Positions 5,577 to 60,485 are shown, counted from the stretch's first letter. The stretch: 64,000 bases of DNA from Candidatus Rokubacteria bacterium RIFCSPLOWO2_02_FULL_73_56 (GCA_001788495.1 MGCF01000006.1:2106-66105), one strand, 5' to 3'. Translations and numbers: made by a program. Notes: a model not told the origin generated them from the sequence alone.

Positions 5577-5915
5577 TTACGACGCCGCCGGCGCGTCGGC
5601 CTGCGCTCCCTCGACCTGGACGGCGCCAAACCGGGCTTCATGTTCCCGCAACACGTTGGCCAGGAGCGTCGACAGCCGCTTGGCGACGAACGGGTTGAGG
5701 ATGAGTCGGTCGGTGAGCTGCACCGTCACGTCCTTCTGCCCGGCGTGCCACGCCTGGTTGATGCCGAAGAGCAGGACGACCTCCTCGCGCGTGCTCGCGA
5801 CGTTGCAGACGTTCGAGTACGAGCTCTTCATCCGGGAATCGTCCCACTTGATGGTGAGCTGCTGGGCCGTGCGCTCGGGCCCGGCCACAGCTTCGCGTTC
5901 ACGCTCGTCCGCCAT
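5577..5915 (-). CDS. DUF3467-like small protein (copy 1), 112 aa.
   Basis: 'MADEREREAVAGPERTAQQLTIKWDDSRMKSSYSNVCNVASTREEVVLLFGINQAWHAGQKDVTVQLTDRLILNPFVAKRLSTLLANVLREHEARFGAV...' carries the YSN / EFV.L.FG / R.IL.P..AKRL / YE..FG signature I associate with DUF3467. It is in the same frame as the downstream GAF-HlyD gene, separated by one TAA. Confidence 0.65.
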   Translation of the reverse strand: MADEREREAVAGPERTAQQLTIKWDDSRMKSSYSNVCNVASTREEVVLLFGINQAWHAGQKDVTVQLTDRLILNPFVAKRLSTLLANVLREHEARFGAVQVEGAQADAPAAS

Positions 5916-5944: not shown

Positions 5945-6892
5945 TCAGCTCGATGGGGTCCGGGTCAGTATGCCCGGCGGCCGCGGAGCCTCGGCCGCTC
6001 GAATGGGCACGAGCTCCGCGGCGTGCCACCCGTACCTCGCCGCGTAGGCCGCGTTGAGCCCCAGGCACCGCGTCGAGCTGCACGCCTCGCGATGCACGCA
6101 CTGGTAGAAGCCGTTGCGCCGGAACTCGGTCCAGAAGGCGGGGTCGATGAACAGCCGCGGCTGCGAGTTGTCGAGCGTGTCCCCGTCCTCGCCCAGCAGG
6201 CAGTGCGGAAAATTCTTGACCATGACGCCACGGTCGAGCGCGTGGCATCTGGCGATCGCCGTCCTCAGGAAGGGGAGCACCTCGAGGTGGGATGCGCCCA
6301 GCTCCTTGACGTCCTGCTCGTTCATGGCGAAGTAGACCCAGAACTCGTGCTGGACCATCCGCCGCAGGTGTCCGAGCCGGTCGACGAGCCGGGGCAGATG
6401 CCGGTAGCTCTTCACCGTGACGACGGTGTTCGTGAGGGTCGCGACGCCCGGCAGCGCGTCCAGGTTCTCCAGGCCCCGGAGGGTCTTGTCGAACGATCCC
6501 GGCACTGTCGTGATCGCGTCGTGCGTCTCGGCGTCCGCGGCGGTGACGCTCACGAAGAACTCGTCGACTCCCGCGTCGACCAGCTCTCGGCAGTAGGCCT
6601 CGCTCGCCAGGCGCATCCCGTGCGTCTGGATCCGCACGTGCTCGAAGCCCCTCCGCCGCGCCTGTCTGGCCAGCTCCGGCAGGTCACGCCGCAGCGTGAT
6701 CTCCGCCCCGGTGAGGATCAGACCCGTCCACCGTCGGTGCGTCGCGTTGTAGTCCAGGAGCTGCTCGAACCGGCTGAGCGACTCCGGCTCCAGCCGGTCC
6801 ATGGTGTCCTCGATCATGCAGTGGACGCAGGCCAGATTGCAGCGGAACTCCAGCGTCATCGACACGTAGCGATCGTCGTCAAACCGTCCCAC
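5945..6892 (-). CDS. Radical SAM enzyme with a C-terminal auxiliary Cys cluster (SPASM/twitch-like), a putative peptide- or protein-modifying maturase.
   Basis: 'RCNLACVHCMIED' is the CX3CX2C 4Fe-4S/SAM motif at residues 18-25. The C-terminal 'HCLLGEDGD...YQCVHREACSSTRCLGLN' Cys cluster suggests a second Fe-S site. Length 315 aa. Confidence 0.75.
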   Translation of the reverse strand: MGRFDDDRYVSMTLEFRCNLACVHCMIEDTMDRLEPESLSRFEQLLDYNATHRRWTGLILTGAEITLRRDLPELARQARRRGFEHVRIQTHGMRLASEAYCRELVDAGVDEFFVSVTAADAETHDAITTVPGSFDKTLRGLENLDALPGVATLTNTVVTVKSYRHLPRLVDRLGHLRRMVQHEFWVYFAMNEQDVKELGASHLEVLPFLRTAIARCHALDRGVMVKNFPHCLLGEDGDTLDNSQPRLFIDPAFWTEFRRNGFYQCVHREACSSTRCLGLNAAYAARYGWHAAELVPIRAAEAPRPPGILTRTPSS

Positions 6893-7235
6893 GGGGCTTC
6901 CCTTCCCTCTCGGCTCGAGTCGCCGGGGACCCTGCGCCCTCGAACCGCGCCTCGTACTCCGCGACCACCCGGCCGAGCAGCACGGCGAGCCGCTTCGCGA
7001 CCGGCGGACTCAGCACGATCCGCTGGCCGAGATCGACGACGAGCTCCTGGCGGTCGGTCCGCGAGGCGCGGCTCACGCCGAACGACAGGACGAACTCCGC
7101 GTCGCTGGTCGATACGTTGCACTGGTTCGCGTGCATCCGCCTGGCGCTCGCGTCGTCCCAGCGGACCCGGGCGGCGCCCGAGCTCACGGCTTCGTCCCCG
7201 TGACCAGGAAGAACGGCGTCTCGAGGTCGATCCAC
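6879..7235 (-). CDS. DUF3467-like small protein (copy 2), 118 aa.
   Basis: 'VRWDDASARRMHANQCNVSTSDAEFVLSFGVSRASRTDRQELVVDLGQRIVLSPPVAKRLAVLLGRVVAEYEARFEG' is paralogous to copies 1, 3 and 4. It overlaps the rSAM start by 14 nt and the O-MT stop by about 50 nt. Confidence 0.6.
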   Translation of the reverse strand: MDRPRDAVLPGHGDEAVSSGAARVRWDDASARRMHANQCNVSTSDAEFVLSFGVSRASRTDRQELVVDLGQRIVLSPPVAKRLAVLLGRVVAEYEARFEGAGSPATRAEREGKPRGTV

Positions 7236-8275: not shown

Positions 8276-9134
8276 AATAGGCGCTCTTGAGGAACACCAG
8301 CCTGCCACCCTCCATACGGTAGTCGATCCCGACATCGTACAGCATGTGGCTCAGACTCGGCCGGTTCCTTTCGACGAACGACACGATCGCTTCCGGATAC
8401 GCCAGCCGCCGCAGGAAGAAGAGGAACTGATCCACGTCAATCCCGACGAAGTAGACGGCATCGTTCCGCTTCTTGTTCGCCACCACGATCACCCGGCACT
8501 TCTGCAGCTCCGGCCACAGGATCTCCTCGATCGGCACCCGCGTGGCGTCCATGTACGCGGAACACCCGGCCTTGTCCTTGATCTCCGCGAGCTGCGAGCG
8601 CGCGTCGAAGAAGAAGTAGAAGTTCTCGAGGGCGGTCCCGCGCTTCGTCAGCGAGTAGCAGATGCCCCCGGAGACCGTGCTCCCGGGCGTCCCGACATAC
8701 ATGTGGATCTCGTCCAGGGAGGCCGTCCCCGTCAGCAGCGACGGGCCCACGTCGAGCGAGAACATGAAGTACGGCAGGCGCTCGTTGACCGGGACGTCGC
8801 AGCGCACCCGAGGCCGGAGCGCCTCGGCGACTCGCGTGATGGAGCGCGTGCGCTCTCGGCGCCGATAGTCGTAGAAGTAGAGCTCCCAGCGCAGCTCGCC
8901 CCCGATCCACTTGACTCCGAAGACCGTCTTCGACACGCCGATCGCCTGCCGGAGGAGCGGCACCAGGTCGAAGCATTCCTCTCCCACCCCCGCGACCTCG
9001 AACGACCGGAACAGCAGGTTCACCGATCGAAACTTGCCGCCCGGGGGCGCGACCGGCTCGTACTCCCACAGGCAGAAGTCCTGCAGCGTCTCCCCCTCCG
9101 CCGCGTACTCGAGGCGCTCGTCGAGCGTCTTCAT
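8262..9134 (-). CDS. Hypothetical protein, 290 aa, aromatic/Lys-rich and markedly lower GC than its surroundings; distant paralogue of the C-terminal domain of the upstream gene.
   Basis: 'MKTLDERLEYAAEGETLQDFCLWEYEPV...NFYFFFDARSQLAEIKDK...FVGIDVDQFLFFLRRLAYPEAIVSFVERNRPSLSHMLYDVGIDYRMEGGRLVFLKSAYYGVF' has real-protein composition. Its ATG overlaps the upstream gene's TGA (ATGA at 9131-9134). Local GC is roughly 58% against about 72% elsewhere. Confidence 0.65.
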   Translation of the reverse strand: MKTLDERLEYAAEGETLQDFCLWEYEPVAPPGGKFRSVNLLFRSFEVAGVGEECFDLVPLLRQAIGVSKTVFGVKWIGGELRWELYFYDYRRRERTRSITRVAEALRPRVRCDVPVNERLPYFMFSLDVGPSLLTGTASLDEIHMYVGTPGSTVSGGICYSLTKRGTALENFYFFFDARSQLAEIKDKAGCSAYMDATRVPIEEILWPELQKCRVIVVANKKRNDAVYFVGIDVDQFLFFLRRLAYPEAIVSFVERNRPSLSHMLYDVGIDYRMEGGRLVFLKSAYYGVF

Positions 9135-10252
9135 TGCGCGCCGAAGTAGATGGAGAGGAAGTCCTTGCCTTCCCGGTCGAAACCGCCCGTCACGTGCCCG
9201 AAGGGCGCCGCGCTCACCTGCGCGTACGCCGCCTCGAACCGGTCCGCGGAGATCGCGTAGTGCTCGCAGATCCTGAGGAACAGGGCGTGGAGATCGCGCA
9301 GCCGCAGTCGCGCGTTGTAGAGGTTGATGTCGAACGAGTTCCGCGGGTTCCCCTCCTCGGTGGTCTCCAGGTACAGGAATCGATCGGCGGCCACCCGGCC
9401 CGCGGCCTGCAGGACGATCTCGCGCGCGAGCGCGAGCGGGGTACCGGAGGGGCCGCCCGCGAAGGCGCGGGCCATCCGCTCCAGCATGTCGTCGGTGGAG
9501 AGCCCGGGATGGCACGTGTACCGCGCGACGGAGCACCGCCGGCTGTCGTCGGCATCCCACTTGAATCCCAGGTACATGAGGAGGGGATCCCGCCGGTTCT
9601 CCGCCTTGGCCCTGACCAGTCTCCCCCCGAATTCCAGATAGGCCTTGTAGCGCTGCGTCCGCTCGCTCTCCTCGAAGCCGAAGAAGACGATGTTGGCCTG
9701 GAAGATGTTCTCGCGGAACGCCGCCACGAAGCGCTCCGGCATCCGGAGGCGCTCGCAGATCGCCAGGAGGCGCCCGCCGGCGTCCTCGCTGAGCGAATCC
9801 CGCTTGAAGCCCCACAGGAACCGGTTCGCGAGCAGGGTCCGCTCGAACATCTTGAAGGAGCGCTCGAGCACCGGCTGGACTCCGAGGTCCTCGACGAGGC
9901 GAAGCAGCTCGGCGGCCTGCTCGGGGATGCCTTCGGTGAGCGACACGGGCGACTTCCGGCTGGAGAGCGGCGCCGCCGGCGGCAGCGGCTCGCCCCCGAG
10001 CGAGCCGTGCTCCCACTCGTAGTCCCGGACGGCGTGCGCCAGCATGGCCGCGAGCCGCTTCGCGGTGGAAGGGCTCAGGACGATCCGGTCGGACACCTCG
10101 AGCACGAGCTCGTCGGTGCCGGGCACCCGGCGCCCCTTGCTCCCGAAGGACAGGGTGACCTCCGAGCGATCGGCGGACAGCTCGAACACGTTCGCGTAGC
10201 TCGTGCTCGCATTCGAGCCTTCCCAGCGCACCGGGACCCGAGCCTCAGACAT
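9131..10252 (-). CDS. DUF3467-like N-terminal domain (copy 3) fused to an unknown about 260-aa domain.
   Basis: 'MSEARVPVRWEGSNASTSYANVFELSADRSEVTLSFGSKGRRVPGTDELVLEVSDRIVLSPSTAKRLAAMLAHAVRDYEWEHGS' is DUF3467-like. The C-terminal '...FDINLYNARLRLRDLHALFLRICEHYAISADRFEAAYAQVSAAPFGHVTGGFDREGKDFLSIYFGAQ' resembles the C-terminus of the 290-aa neighbour. GGAGGG RBS 7 nt upstream; 93 nt downstream of the giant gene stop. Confidence 0.65.
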   Translation of the reverse strand: MSEARVPVRWEGSNASTSYANVFELSADRSEVTLSFGSKGRRVPGTDELVLEVSDRIVLSPSTAKRLAAMLAHAVRDYEWEHGSLGGEPLPPAAPLSSRKSPVSLTEGIPEQAAELLRLVEDLGVQPVLERSFKMFERTLLANRFLWGFKRDSLSEDAGGRLLAICERLRMPERFVAAFRENIFQANIVFFGFEESERTQRYKAYLEFGGRLVRAKAENRRDPLLMYLGFKWDADDSRRCSVARYTCHPGLSTDDMLERMARAFAGGPSGTPLALAREIVLQAAGRVAADRFLYLETTEEGNPRNSFDINLYNARLRLRDLHALFLRICEHYAISADRFEAAYAQVSAAPFGHVTGGFDREGKDFLSIYFGAQ

Positions 10253-35676: not shown

Positions 35677-35988
35677 TCAGCCCGGCAGCGCCCCGAACCG
35701 CGCCTCGTACTCCCTGAGGATGTTGGCGAGCAGCGCGGAAAGCCGCTTGGCCGCCATGGGGCTCAGAATGATCCGGTCCGTGAGCTGCACCGGGATCTCT
35801 TTCTGGGCGCTGTGCCAGGCCTGGTTGATCCCGAACAGGAGGACGACCTCCTCGCGTGTGCTCGCGACGTTGCACACGTTCGCGTAGGAGCTCGTCATGT
35901 TCGAGTCGTCCCACTTGATCTGAGGCTGGGCCTGCGCCTGCCCGGCCGGCCGCGGTGACGGGGTCTCTGCGCTCCGTTCGTTGGCCAT
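35677..35988 (-). CDS. DUF3467-like small protein (copy 4), 103 aa, near-identical core to copy 1.
   Basis: 'IKWDDSNMTSSYANVCNVASTREEVVLLFGINQAWHSAQKEIPVQLTDRIILSPMAAKRLSALLANILREYEARFGALPG'. About 85% aa and about 87% nt identity to 5577..5915 over roughly 250 bp. Confidence 0.65.
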   Translation of the reverse strand: MANERSAETPSPRPAGQAQAQPQIKWDDSNMTSSYANVCNVASTREEVVLLFGINQAWHSAQKEIPVQLTDRIILSPMAAKRLSALLANILREYEARFGALPG

Positions 35989-55242: not shown

Positions 55243-55483
55243 CTACCCCGACCGGCGCAGGGCGGCGATCATATCCAGCACCCGCAGGATCTCGCGCCCT
55301 CGCGGTCCACGACGAACGTCGAGCGGTAGGCGACGTTGCGCTCGGCGTCGAGCACCGGGAAGGCGCGGAGGGCCGTGCGGTGGACGTCGGCCAGGAGCGG
55401 GAACGGCAGGGCCCGCGCCCGCGCGAACGCGGCGTGGCAGAACGGGCGGAACCCGGGGGCGGCGTGGCCGAAGCGCAGGCCGG
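55243..55483 (-). pseudogene. Remnant of a Bcp/peroxiredoxin (AhpC/TSA family): C-terminal about 75 aa only, with a frameshift.
   Basis: Reverse-strand frames give 'GHAAPGFRPFCHAAFARARALPFPLLADVHRTALRAFPV...DAERNVAYRSTFVVDREG' then, in the +1 frame, 'REILRVLDMIAALRRSG*'. No N-terminal CxxxxC half is present (the space is occupied by the crotonase gene). Confidence 0.35.
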
Positions 55484-56290
55484 TCACGCCGGCGGGTCCT
55501 CGAACCGCGGTGGGCGCCGCTCGAGGTTGGCGCGGACGGCCTCGGCGTGGTTGGCGCCATCGAGCAGCGCGCGCTGCACGCGCTCCTCCAGGCGCAGGCC
55601 CTCCTCGAGGCCCGCGGTCACGGCACGCTGGAGCAGGCGCTTGCCGGCGCGGACCGCGTCGGGCGACCGGGCGGCGAGCTCGCGCGCGAGCTCGAGCGCG
55701 GTCGCGCGCGGCGTCGCGGAGAGCCGCGTCGCCAGGCCGAGCGCGACCGCCTCGGTGCCTGTGACGACCCGGCCGGTCAGCGCCAGCTCCTTCAGCACGT
55801 CGAGCCGCACGAGGTGGCGGAGCGTCTGCGTGCCGGTCATGTCGGGGACGAGCCCCCAGCGGACCTCCATGACCGAGAGCTGCGCGTCCGGCGCGACCAG
55901 GCGGATGTCGGCGGCGAGCGCGATCTGCAGCCCGCCGCCGAAGCACGCGCCGTGCACCGCGGCGATCACCGGCACGGGCAGCTCCGCCCAGACCCACGCC
56001 GCCTGCTGGGCGAAGGTGGCGACCTCGCCGGGCTCGCGCGCGAGCAGGTCCCGCACGGCGCGGCCCTCGGCCCGCGCCGCCGCGAAGCTCGCGAAGTCGA
56101 GGCCCGCCGAGAACGCGCGCCCCTCGCCGGAGAGCACGACGGCGCGCAGCGCGCGGTCGCCGGCGAGGGCCCGCCCCGTCGCCACGAGCGCCTCGAACAT
56201 GGCCGCGTCGAGGCCGTTCAGCTTGTCCGGCCGGTTGAGCCGCACGTCGGCCACGCCGGCGTGCCGCGCGACGCTGACGCGCTCGCTCAC
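55484..56290 (-). CDS. Enoyl-CoA hydratase/isomerase (crotonase) family protein.
   Basis: 'VADVRLNRPDKLNGLD...VVLSGEGRAFSAGLDF...AAVHGACFGGGLQIALAADIRL'. GTG start overlapping the cupin gene stop (GTGA). Confidence 0.8.
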   Translation of the reverse strand: MSERVSVARHAGVADVRLNRPDKLNGLDAAMFEALVATGRALAGDRALRAVVLSGEGRAFSAGLDFASFAAARAEGRAVRDLLAREPGEVATFAQQAAWVWAELPVPVIAAVHGACFGGGLQIALAADIRLVAPDAQLSVMEVRWGLVPDMTGTQTLRHLVRLDVLKELALTGRVVTGTEAVALGLATRLSATPRATALELARELAARSPDAVRAGKRLLQRAVTAGLEEGLRLEERVQRALLDGANHAEAVRANLERRPPRFEDPPA

Positions 56291-59161: not shown

Positions 59162-59385
59162 GCGCCCGCCCTAGCGCGCATTATTCACGAACGGTCAGCG
59201 CGCGAGCCGGGCAGGGCCTGTCGCAGGGTGCGGTCCTCGCGGGGCCGGCGCCGTCACCCATTCGCCCGAACGCCGCGCTGCGCGCGGCGGACGGGACGAA
59301 GGGGGCCCACAGCGCGCGGCCCCGCGAGGGCCGCACCCTGCGCCACCCGCCCGGTCGTGCCAGCGCCGTTCGCGAATAACGCGCG

Positions 59386-59886
59386 CTAGCGCGCCGACGC
59401 GCTCGAGAGCGCGACGACCGCGTCGCCGGCGCGCAGCGTGGCGTCCCAGCCGATCGCGATCGCGCCCTTGACGCTCTCGTGGGCGGGGCAGCCCTGCGGG
59501 TGCACGGCGAGCGCGCGCTCGGCGGCCTCGCGCGCCTCCGCCGGCACGCTGAGATCGTAGTGGACCTGGATCGACGCGATGCGGATCGTCGTGCCCGTGC
59601 CGACGATGCGCCCGTCCACCGTCGCCGTGTACGCGCTCCGGTCGAACGTGATCTTGCGCCCTGCCAGGGCGCCGGCCAGCGTGCCGTACATTCAGCCGGC
59701 CACCGCCGCCACGATGTGATCGAGCGTCGAGGCCACCGGCGGGCCCGCCTTGACGCCGTAGTACGCGCGGAGCGCGCCCTGCACGCCGTAGACGACCGGC
59801 TCCGGGACCTCGCCCAGCCACGCGTTGCGGAAGCCGCCGCGGTACTCGAGGCGGGCGTGCGAGACGTACTCGAACTCCTGGCTCAT
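59386..59886 (-). CDS. OsmC/Ohr-family peroxiredoxin-like protein with an in-frame TGA (59692-59694) at the catalytic Cys position: candidate selenoprotein (Sec-OsmC), alternatively a pseudogene.
   Basis: The two listed ORFs (59692.. and 59386..59691) are one reading frame: 'MSQEFEYVSH...STLDHIVAAVAG-TGA-MYGTLAGALAGRKITFDRSAYTATVDGRI...AVHPQGCPAHESVKGAIAI'. This aligns with OsmC 'AAHAACFSMAL', putting the TGA exactly where the peroxidatic Cys sits. A second conserved Cys ('GCPAHES') is present. Strong GAGGAGGAGGAGG RBS before the ATG at 59886. Confidence 0.55.
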
Positions 59887-59915
59887 GCGGTCCTCCTCCT
59901 CCTCGTCGGTCGGCT

Positions 59916-60485
59916 CTACGCCGCCTTGACCGTCAGCACCGGGCACGGCGCCATCCGGATCACGCGATCGGCGACGCTCCCCACGAGGAGGCGATGGACC
60001 TCGCCGCGCCCGTGCGTGGCGAGCAGCACGAGGTCCGCCTGCTCCTCCTTCGCGGCGGCGACGACCTCGCGGTAGGGCACGCCGACGCGCAGGAGCGTGC
60101 GCACCCGGCAACCGGCCGCGCGCCCGGCGTCGGCCCACTCCTCGAGCTTCCTGGCCCACTCGCGCCCCGCGGCGGAGAACTCGCGCACCCGCTCGCCCGC
60201 GAGGGGCCCGGCGAAGACGCGCCCGGGCGGCGGCACCTCGCCTTCCTCGTCGGCGCGCGGGATCCCGAGCTGGTGCTCCGCCTGCAGCGCCCGCAGCTCC
60301 GCGCGCAACTCCTCGGTCTGCAGCCGGACCTCGGTGTCGATCGGCGTGGCAGGCAGGACGTGCAGCAGCACCAGCTCGGCCCCGAAGCTCGGGGCGAGCC
60401 GCTGCGCCAGGCTCCAGGCCTTCTCCGACCCGAGGGAGAAGTCCGTGGGCACCAGGACCCGGGTGATGCCGGAGGTCGTCGTCAT
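59916..60485 (-). CDS. Universal stress protein (UspA family).
   Basis: 'ITRVLVPTDFSLGSEKAW...LVLLATHGRGEVHRLLVGSVADRVIRMAPCPVLTVK'. Confidence 0.8.
   Translation of the reverse strand: MTTTSGITRVLVPTDFSLGSEKAWSLAQRLAPSFGAELVLLHVLPATPIDTEVRLQTEELRAELRALQAEHQLGIPRADEEGEVPPPGRVFAGPLAGERVREFSAAGREWARKLEEWADAGRAAGCRVRTLLRVGVPYREVVAAAKEEQADLVLLATHGRGEVHRLLVGSVADRVIRMAPCPVLTVKAA

Follow-up and report, generated by a model that had tools for sequence, protein, structure and literature searches.

The 64,000-nt stretch of DNA analysed here (hereafter, the window) derives from Candidatus Rokubacteria bacterium RIFCSPLOWO2_02_FULL_73_56 (GCA_001788495.1, MGCF01000006.1:2106-66105) and carries, on the minus strand at 59386..59886, a complete gene of 166 sense codons with its ATG at 59886 and a TAG stop at 59388..59386. 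The gene very probably encodes one intact peroxidase of the OsmC/Ohr fold in which codon 65, a UGA at 59692..59694 (minus strand), is decoded as selenocysteine (Sec, U). On sequence grounds it is the comparison with relatives, rather than the single sequence, that supports this reading: the assignment of U65 to the peroxidatic-cysteine position is based on the conservation of the UGA, on the Cys-containing homologues and on the alignment with Ohr. ORF finding and the public gene calls cut the gene into open reading frames (ORFs) of 64 and 101 aa. A preliminary description of the region, made from the sequence alone, had instead proposed a full-length read-through frame of 166 aa with no other lesion, and this frame proved to be correct, with exactly one in-frame TGA (codon 65, 59694..59692) and a Pfam match extending across it; the strand, which had been left unstated, is the minus strand. 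The local reading at the recoded codon is ...HIVAAVAG-TGA-MYGTLAGALAGRK...

The distribution of the TGA was established by a scan of GTDB with one genome per species. A relative of the gene was present in 230 genomes, 80 loci were kept and the resulting alignment comprised 81 sequences. TGA occupies the same codon in all 80 kept loci and in all 81 aligned sequences, and in each of the 81 the next codon is ATG. The 64 codons that form the N-terminal part are conserved and keep their frame across the 80 loci. As labelled, 35 of these loci belong to Rokubacteria/Methylomirabilota and 37 to Ktedonobacteria or other Chloroflexota; the remaining eight come from bins labelled Acidobacteria, Actinomycetota, Deferrimicrobiaceae, Nitrosotalea (probably mis-binned) or unclassified. 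The complete genome of the Ktedonobacteria bacterium brp13 (AP024096.1) contains two near-identical copies of the TGA-containing gene (L021 and L026), located about 20.7 kb apart at about 7,666,395 and 7,645,725, respectively. When the TGA and 66 nt were compared, the two copies differed at a single synonymous site in the stem of the hairpin described below (GGT vs GGC).

Both sides of the TGA bear the marks of selection on a protein. Upstream of the TGA, 33 of 45 codons specify the same amino acid in at least 90% of the 81 sequences. Each of these 33 is represented by at least two synonymous codons (mean synonymous entropy 1.38 bits), and the same pattern was found in the downstream part (mean synonymous entropy 1.32 bits). 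Conserved amino acids specified by varying synonymous codons mean that both halves are translated in frame and are under purifying selection, which excludes a pseudogene or a sequencing error as the origin of the TGA.

A conversion of a Cys codon (TGC or TGT) to TGA by decay or by a sequencing or assembly error was considered because TGT and TGA differ by one base only, a 598-bp contig (L085) has TGT followed by an otherwise identical hairpin, and a long-read contig (L088) has CGA at the site together with frameshifts. An error of this kind is, however, hardly conceivable when the TGA is found in 80 of 80 independent genomes from at least two main phyla (Methylomirabilota and Chloroflexota) and a few bins labelled as other phyla, and when assemblies of the same population from four environmental samples are 98.9-99.9% identical to the window over the aligned parts. 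The divergent flanks of the homologous loci rule out a single contaminating sequence. Decay is opposed by the strong purifying selection on both halves and by the comparison with Rokubacteria RIFCSPLOWO2_02_FULL_72_37 (L001), which is syntenic with a 10-kb part of the window (78-94% nucleotide identity): no segment of the block is better conserved than the OsmC-like gene, with 93.8% identity in comparison to 78-86% in the flanks. The picture expected of a degenerate copy, i.e. TGC or TGT in the relatives and further inactivating changes in the window, was thus not encountered.

The residue replaced by the UGA was deduced from proteins that are not interrupted at this position. Among 5.8 billion proteins 1475 matches were obtained, and 112 of the 120 matches listed were pieces of about 100 aa beginning at the Met directly after the TGA. 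The longer entries had Cys (P0002), Ser (P0003), Trp (P0001, P0007 and P0095) or Arg (P0009) at the site. The Arg of P0009 corresponds to the CGA of the frameshifted contig L088, and the Trp of P0001 is a TGA translated under a table-4 gene call, a second TGA near the end of this entry also being given as Trp. A HMMER scan of 1.84 billion cluster representatives with the Cys form P0002 as the query revealed two exact fragment classes, 43 entries with residue 66 as their first and 21 with residue 64 as their last. Among the full-length relatives at 30-51% identity, Cys was found at column 65 in 30 of the 31 that have a residue there (with no gap, frameshift or scrambled stretch), and Cys133 was invariant. 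Alignment with Cys homologues, which had been proposed as a check, therefore gave the answer expected for a Sec/Cys pair. The one exception, P0160 (40% identical), has Trp at the column (GGWLTGT); this may be a TGA translated as Trp, in which case a more distant branch would use Sec as well.

The clade itself is almost exclusively Sec-containing above about 55% identity. A close Cys form, P0002, is encoded by the TGT of the 598-bp metagenome contig L085, and its retention of the hairpin points to a base error or to a change that took place very recently. The Ser form (TCG) was seen in three samples and has lost the frozen hairpin codons, which read GGT GTT CTG GCC, with GGT at codon +3.

Membership of the OsmC family was indicated by Pfam: when codon 65 was given as Cys, the protein scored 36.5 bits with OsmC (PF02566), above the gathering cutoff of 27.5, and the match covered residues 56-146, so that the OsmC domain spans the stop codon. 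The same model matched 24 of 25 wider relatives. More narrowly defined models gave scores below their cutoffs, 18.4 bits (cutoff 95) with NCBIfam NF041052, 'OsmC-related (seleno)protein', and 16.7 bits (cutoff 85.8) with TIGR03562 (OsmC); the best E-value of NF041052 among the 25 relatives was 2e-6. TIGR03561 (Ohr) did not match the window protein and matched two of the 25 relatives weakly (best E-value 5.2e-5).

When the site was masked as X, phmmer aligned residues 67-145 with residues 62-136 of Pseudomonas aeruginosa Ohr (1n2f), and in this alignment codon 65 falls on Cys60, the peroxidatic cysteine of Ohr, and Cys133 on Cys124, the resolving one. The match to E. coli OsmC, at an offset of 8 over residues 81-147, puts Cys133 on residue 125. 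A structural comparison was made with an AlphaFold model of the Cys form P0002, a homologue 73% identical to the window protein (pLDDT 78, pTM 0.75), in which residue 65 lies in the middle of the helix 54-76. With this model as the query Foldseek returned E. coli OsmC, other OsmC and Ohr proteins on top, all with a probability of 1.0, and the top 50 PDB matches were OsmC/Ohr-family or OsmC-like structural-genomics entries. A PDB search with the narrow family profile gave weak and partly spurious matches (FAP, serine racemase) and was of less use than the single-sequence search with the masked site. By the model, the protein thus belongs to the OsmC/Ohr superfamily and has the OsmC fold, in agreement with the preliminary description, which had also placed the TGA on the peroxidatic Cys. 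R20 and D56 are invariant in the family alignment and are plausible candidate equivalents of the catalytic Arg/Glu pair of Ohr.

The decoding of UGA as Sec in bacteria relies on a selenocysteine insertion sequence (SECIS), and a putative core of such an element, GCGCCCU-GGC-AGGGCGC, is located at 59656..59672 on the minus strand, as delimited by RNAalifold and by frozen synonymous sites. It forms a 7-bp stem with the loop GGC, or a 6-bp stem with the loop UGGCA, the loop varying as U-G-[G/U]-C-A. The hairpin starts 19 nt past the A of the UGA, or 22 nt when counted from the U, which is near the distance of about 21 nt proposed earlier for GCGCCC-UGGCA-GGGCGC, and the spacing between the UGA and the loop is 25-26 nt. 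Its folding energy is -12.0 kcal/mol alone and -13.4 kcal/mol with flanking bases. The published model of bacterial SECIS elements (bSECIS) has an apical loop of 3-9 nt, an upper stem of 4-16 bp, a G in the first two loop positions, the loop pattern N1-G-[G|U]-N-N2 with N1 and N2 able to pair, 16-37 nt between the UGA and the loop and a minimum free energy of at most -7.5 kcal/mol (PMC13188914). The hairpin agrees with this model in stem, loop, spacing and energy, and the earlier suggestion that it might belong to a SECIS was borne out in this respect as well as by the synonymous sites.

In the alignment of the 66 nt from the UGA in 81 sequences this hairpin was the only consensus structure predicted by RNAalifold. 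Its pairing is kept in 99.8% of the alignment cells, in comparison to 29-61% when the partners are slid. Codons +8 to +12 (GCC CTG [G/T]CA GGG CGC), which form the hairpin, have a synonymous entropy of 0-0.23 bits vs a mean of 1.33 bits elsewhere in the gene. The third positions in the stem vary between C and U only, always opposite G (GGC/GGT, GCC/GCT, CGC/CGT), whereas Gly, Ala and Arg elsewhere in the gene use all four third bases. The variation in the stem amounts to 27 single changes that preserve pairing through wobble and one that breaks it. The hairpin is thus conserved beyond the need of the protein sequence, as seen from the low synonymous entropy, and this conservation is relaxed in the Ser-form relative. 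Rfam gave no match over the whole window at gathering thresholds and two chance-level matches only in a permissive search of a 181-nt region, and neither outcome is informative for or against a SECIS.

With the upstream sequence included, RNAalifold also indicated a tentative second small helix, GU.GCCG/CGGCAC, at 59681..59703 (minus strand), in which 59703..59697 pairs with 59686..59681 and the UGA lies in a loop of 10 nt. It is paired in 96.9% of the alignment cells vs 20-55% with slid partners and might account for the invariant GGC codon of Gly68. Support for it is weak since the protein sequence by itself already fixes the majority of its positions.

The use of Sec in related bacteria was apparent from the neighbourhood of the homologous loci. 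The preliminary description had read the composition as deltaproteobacterial, which did not hold; the relatives place the window in Rokubacteria/Methylomirabilota. One related contig (L027) carries a tRNA-Sec gene 8.5 kb from the family gene. In five loci (L007, L017, L027, L036 and L070) the next downstream gene encodes a peroxiredoxin-like (Prx-like) protein with ...YRSAEW-TGA-PFCKTQL, a canonical UxxC motif, and in L059 the same gene lies nearby on the opposite strand. Further loci have FYRGRW-TGA-PYCN, FWTYG-TGA-[IY]NC or an AhpD-like CHY-TGA (CxxU), and genes of the Prx-like UxxC type stand beside the OsmC-like gene in about 20% of the loci. The neighbouring UxxC genes have conserved hairpins of their own, in which a stem of 7-9 bp carries a loop of 3 nt (G[U/G]N) in the same geometry; one group of these hairpins displays compensatory U-A to C-G changes. 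In keeping with these observations, 63 selenoproteins have been predicted for one Methylomirabilota metagenome-assembled genome (Deng et al. 2026, cited in PMC13188914).

On the related contigs L016, L050, L073, L080, L004 and L071, in-frame TGA codons were also seen near the OsmC-like gene, in genes of classical selenoprotein types (Prx-like or thioredoxin-like UxxC and AhpD-like). The tRNA-Sec and in-frame-TGA features have the coordinates L027:10461-11000, L027:18747-18844, L036:17832 and L075:11589. The Chloroflexota loci L034 (at 11719, ...LLTPT-TGA-PLCSH...) and L076 (at 9330, ...FLTPG-TGA-PICHV...) have UxxC genes near the OsmC-like gene that may encode another selenoprotein.

Insertion of Trp, Cys or Arg, i.e. 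of a standard amino acid, at the UGA through reassignment of the codon or through programmed near-cognate read-through was judged highly improbable. Some gene callers did give Trp at the site (P0001, P0007 and P0095), and no Sec machinery was seen in the window. The Trp of P0001 is nevertheless an artefact of translation table 4, as also the second TGA of this entry was read in this way, and that of P0007 and P0095 is probably another; it is Cys, not Trp, that stands at this column in the homologues. TGA is moreover the commonest stop codon in the window, ending 26 of the 42 predicted genes (one of these being the Sec-TGA, where the gene-finder split the gene), and its ordinary use as a stop excludes a reassigned genetic code. 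Finally, the tRNA-Sec gene and the canonical UxxC selenoprotein genes on related contigs speak against a standard amino acid.

The only serious alternative to Sec is that the region comprises two small genes, of 64 and 101 aa, coupled by termination and reinitiation at UGA-AUG, whose products would form a non-covalent split OsmC-like protein lacking the first catalytic residue. Such an arrangement would explain why ATG directly follows TGA in all 81 sequences, why gene callers annotate both pieces as genes and why the two fragment classes dominate the database entries. It was considered unlikely to a high degree, since the break falls exactly on the Cys column of the full-length homologues, which is that of the peroxidatic Cys of Ohr, and in the middle of the predicted helix 54-76. 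Met66 is present in the Cys and Ser forms too, so that it is a residue of the protein and not a start signal. The ATG of Met66 is not preceded by a conserved Shine-Dalgarno sequence, codons -4 to -1 varying freely at synonymous sites, and two separate genes would leave unexplained the frozen hairpin 19 nt downstream, the SECIS geometry of which is the same as that in the neighbouring UxxC genes.

The decoding of codon 65 as Sec, the preferred reading, has to be weighed against several results that tell in the opposite direction. There are no double compensatory changes in the hairpin among the 81 sequences, and for this reason conservation with wobble-compatible change, not covariation, is claimed. 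RNA folding after the UGA, suggested previously as a check, gave a divided answer: RNAalifold predicts the hairpin, but the single-sequence fold of 69 nt has a non-significant z of -0.75. At 72% GC, about 7% of the TGAs in the window precede by chance a perfect hairpin of 6 bp or more that is compatible with the model; unlike a lone hairpin, the comparative pattern lies far beyond chance as judged from the alignments. The match in sequence to OsmC/Ohr proteins of solved structure is weak (E = 0.07-0.4). There is no tRNA gene within the 64-kb window, and no selA, selB, selC or selD was found in the window or in the fetched loci, the tRNA-Sec of L027 excepted. A tblastn search for a selD-like sequence was also negative in the window and in every locus, a weak negative given that the SelD probe was unverified.

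If codon 65 is decoded as Sec, the SECIS hairpin within the coding sequence would recruit SelB carrying Sec-tRNA(Sec) to the UGA, and Sec65, halfway along the long central helix, would be the nucleophile at the peroxidatic position of the OsmC/Ohr proteins. By analogy with the family, the reaction of Sec65 with a hydroperoxide would yield a selenenic acid, which Cys133 would resolve to a selenenylsulfide. The codon of this putative resolving cysteine, part of a GCPAH motif, lies at 59488..59490 (minus strand) and is invariant in all alignments; the second Cys had been described as intact, and it is. The selenenylsulfide would then be reduced by a dithiol donor, possibly thioredoxin or the neighbouring Prx-like protein. 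The reductants of Ohr and OsmC are lipoyl proteins.

The type of selenoprotein is already known and no new mechanism is involved. A predicted selenoprotein family named 'OsmC-like protein' was described in 2005 from the Sargasso Sea (Zhang, Fomenko & Gladyshev, PMC1088965), OsmC-like selenoproteins were later found also in the Global Ocean Sampling (GOS) data (PMC2398784) and in Olavius symbionts (PMC1976440), and the family is catalogued as PF02566 with the motif UxxT in a 2026 catalogue (PMC13188914, Table 1), where MCS5647933.1 is its representative. The present protein resembles these in belonging to PF02566, in its single UGA-encoded Sec with a downstream bSECIS, in having Cys homologues and in the presumed thiol-peroxidase or redox role. 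It differs in the motif, which is U-M-Y-G-T with Thr at +4 (UxxxT) and not UxxT, the comparison being one of descriptions only. The published members are rare and of marine or symbiont origin, whereas the present clade occurs in soil and groundwater Rokubacteria and in Ktedonobacteria. In the published family Cys forms far outnumber Sec forms (161 vs 5 in GOS, PMC2398784), whereas the present clade is essentially all Sec above about 55% identity. No paper describing this clade was found in the literature on OsmC selenocysteine in Chloroflexi, Rokubacteria and Ktedonobacter, and the GenBank entries checked are hypothetical fragments of about 100 aa only, e.g. MGH2514931.1 and GAC1399193.1 (102-103 aa).

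Compared with Ohr and OsmC (1n2f; E. coli OsmC 1qwi/1nye), the fold is the same, the redox residues are about 68 positions apart, and in both the first of them belongs to the central helix and the second to a C-P motif. The present protein has Sec in place of the peroxidatic Cys, is about 25 residues longer and has a distinctive N-terminal segment, FEY.S.ARL.YR.GYR.AYLGEV.EPVVYGVQG. Sec-containing peroxiredoxins and Prx-like UxxC proteins are likewise peroxide or disulfide redox enzymes with a nucleophilic Sec and the same bSECIS geometry, but they have the thioredoxin fold, unrelated to that of OsmC, and other motifs.

The known picture of Sec decoding and of OsmC chemistry is thus left unchanged. 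The gene occurs in at least 230 species-level genomes and is systematically annotated as two meaningless fragments, so that its recognition puts these entries right and adds to the selenoproteomes of Methylomirabilota and Chloroflexota. Since Cys forms usually dominate selenoprotein families, a clade that is nearly all Sec provides a clean case for studying the benefit of Sec vs Cys in the OsmC/Ohr site. The hairpin, kept at the nucleotide level across phyla, is a well-defined example of a bacterial SECIS beyond the usual model organisms.

A bolder proposal is that the clade depends obligately on Sec, with no Cys orthologues above about 55% identity, that horizontal transfer has spread it, together with its frozen SECIS, among phyla of soil and groundwater (Rokubacteria/Methylomirabilota, Ktedonobacteria and others), and that the protein forms one half of a two-selenoprotein peroxide relay with the adjacent Prx-like UxxC protein (in about 20% of the genomes). 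This was regarded as speculative and rather unlikely. If true, it would be the first OsmC/Ohr-type peroxidase with catalysis dependent on a selenenylsulfide.

The start of the OsmC-like gene is preceded by a Shine-Dalgarno-like purine-rich run, GAGGAGGAGGAGGA, at 59891..59904 (minus strand), read directly from the sequence and ending 4 nt before the ATG; the strong ribosome-binding site reported for the gene is thus present. Upstream, at 59916..60485 on the same strand, lies a gene for a universal stress protein (Usp), assigned by a Pfam Usp match on the identical gene in L081-L084; it also neighbours the OsmC-like gene in L001 (91% amino-acid identity). The Usp gene ends 27 nt before the OsmC-like start codon, and in view of the common strand and the short gap the two genes are probably co-transcribed. 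No promoter-like or terminator-like consensus sites were found in the gene region.

The whole spacer between the OsmC-like gene and a convergent CoA-transferase gene is filled by a long imperfect palindrome of 237 nt at 59162..59398 (strand unassigned), composed of nested inverted repeats of 28, 29 and 14 nt, with the TAG stop of the OsmC-like gene in its outer arm. The corresponding RNA forms one hairpin, with a folding energy of -197 kcal/mol and a z of -10.4. It occurs once in the window and is unaligned in L001. The palindrome is likely to act as a bidirectional terminator-like hairpin, or it could be a repetitive extragenic palindrome (REP)-like or miniature inverted-repeat transposable element (MITE)-like sequence.

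A scan based on the GC content of third codon positions (GC3) revealed no second gene with an in-frame TGA in the window; its other candidates, antisense frames of a giant gene and one ordinary gene boundary, were rejected. An AhpC/TSA fragment at 55269..55487 (minus strand) was considered as a second selenoprotein and was also rejected, being a deletion remnant without the catalytic part. This remnant is a 72-aa C-terminal piece directly after the enoyl-CoA hydratase gene. At the same locus L081:14203-14475 has a fuller Prx-like gene, ...DFRGRADVVLVFYCYDWGGI-TGA-TPEL..., with an in-frame TGA at the peroxidatic position, and the TGA-containing part of this gene has been lost from the window, from L082 and from L084 through a deletion of about 57 codons.

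The giant gene corresponds to one ORF of about 7,949 codons at 10346-34195 (minus strand) with a GC3 of 0.97. Proteins of about 100 aa encoded on the minus strand at 5577-5888, 6879-7187 and 35677-35988, as well as the N-terminus of that encoded at 9131-10231, share a '(K/R)WDDS...(S/T)SYxNVCNV'-like motif and look like a repeated small-protein family. These small proteins flank the giant gene and adjoin a gene at 5945-6865 with the Cys-rich motif CVHCMIEDT.

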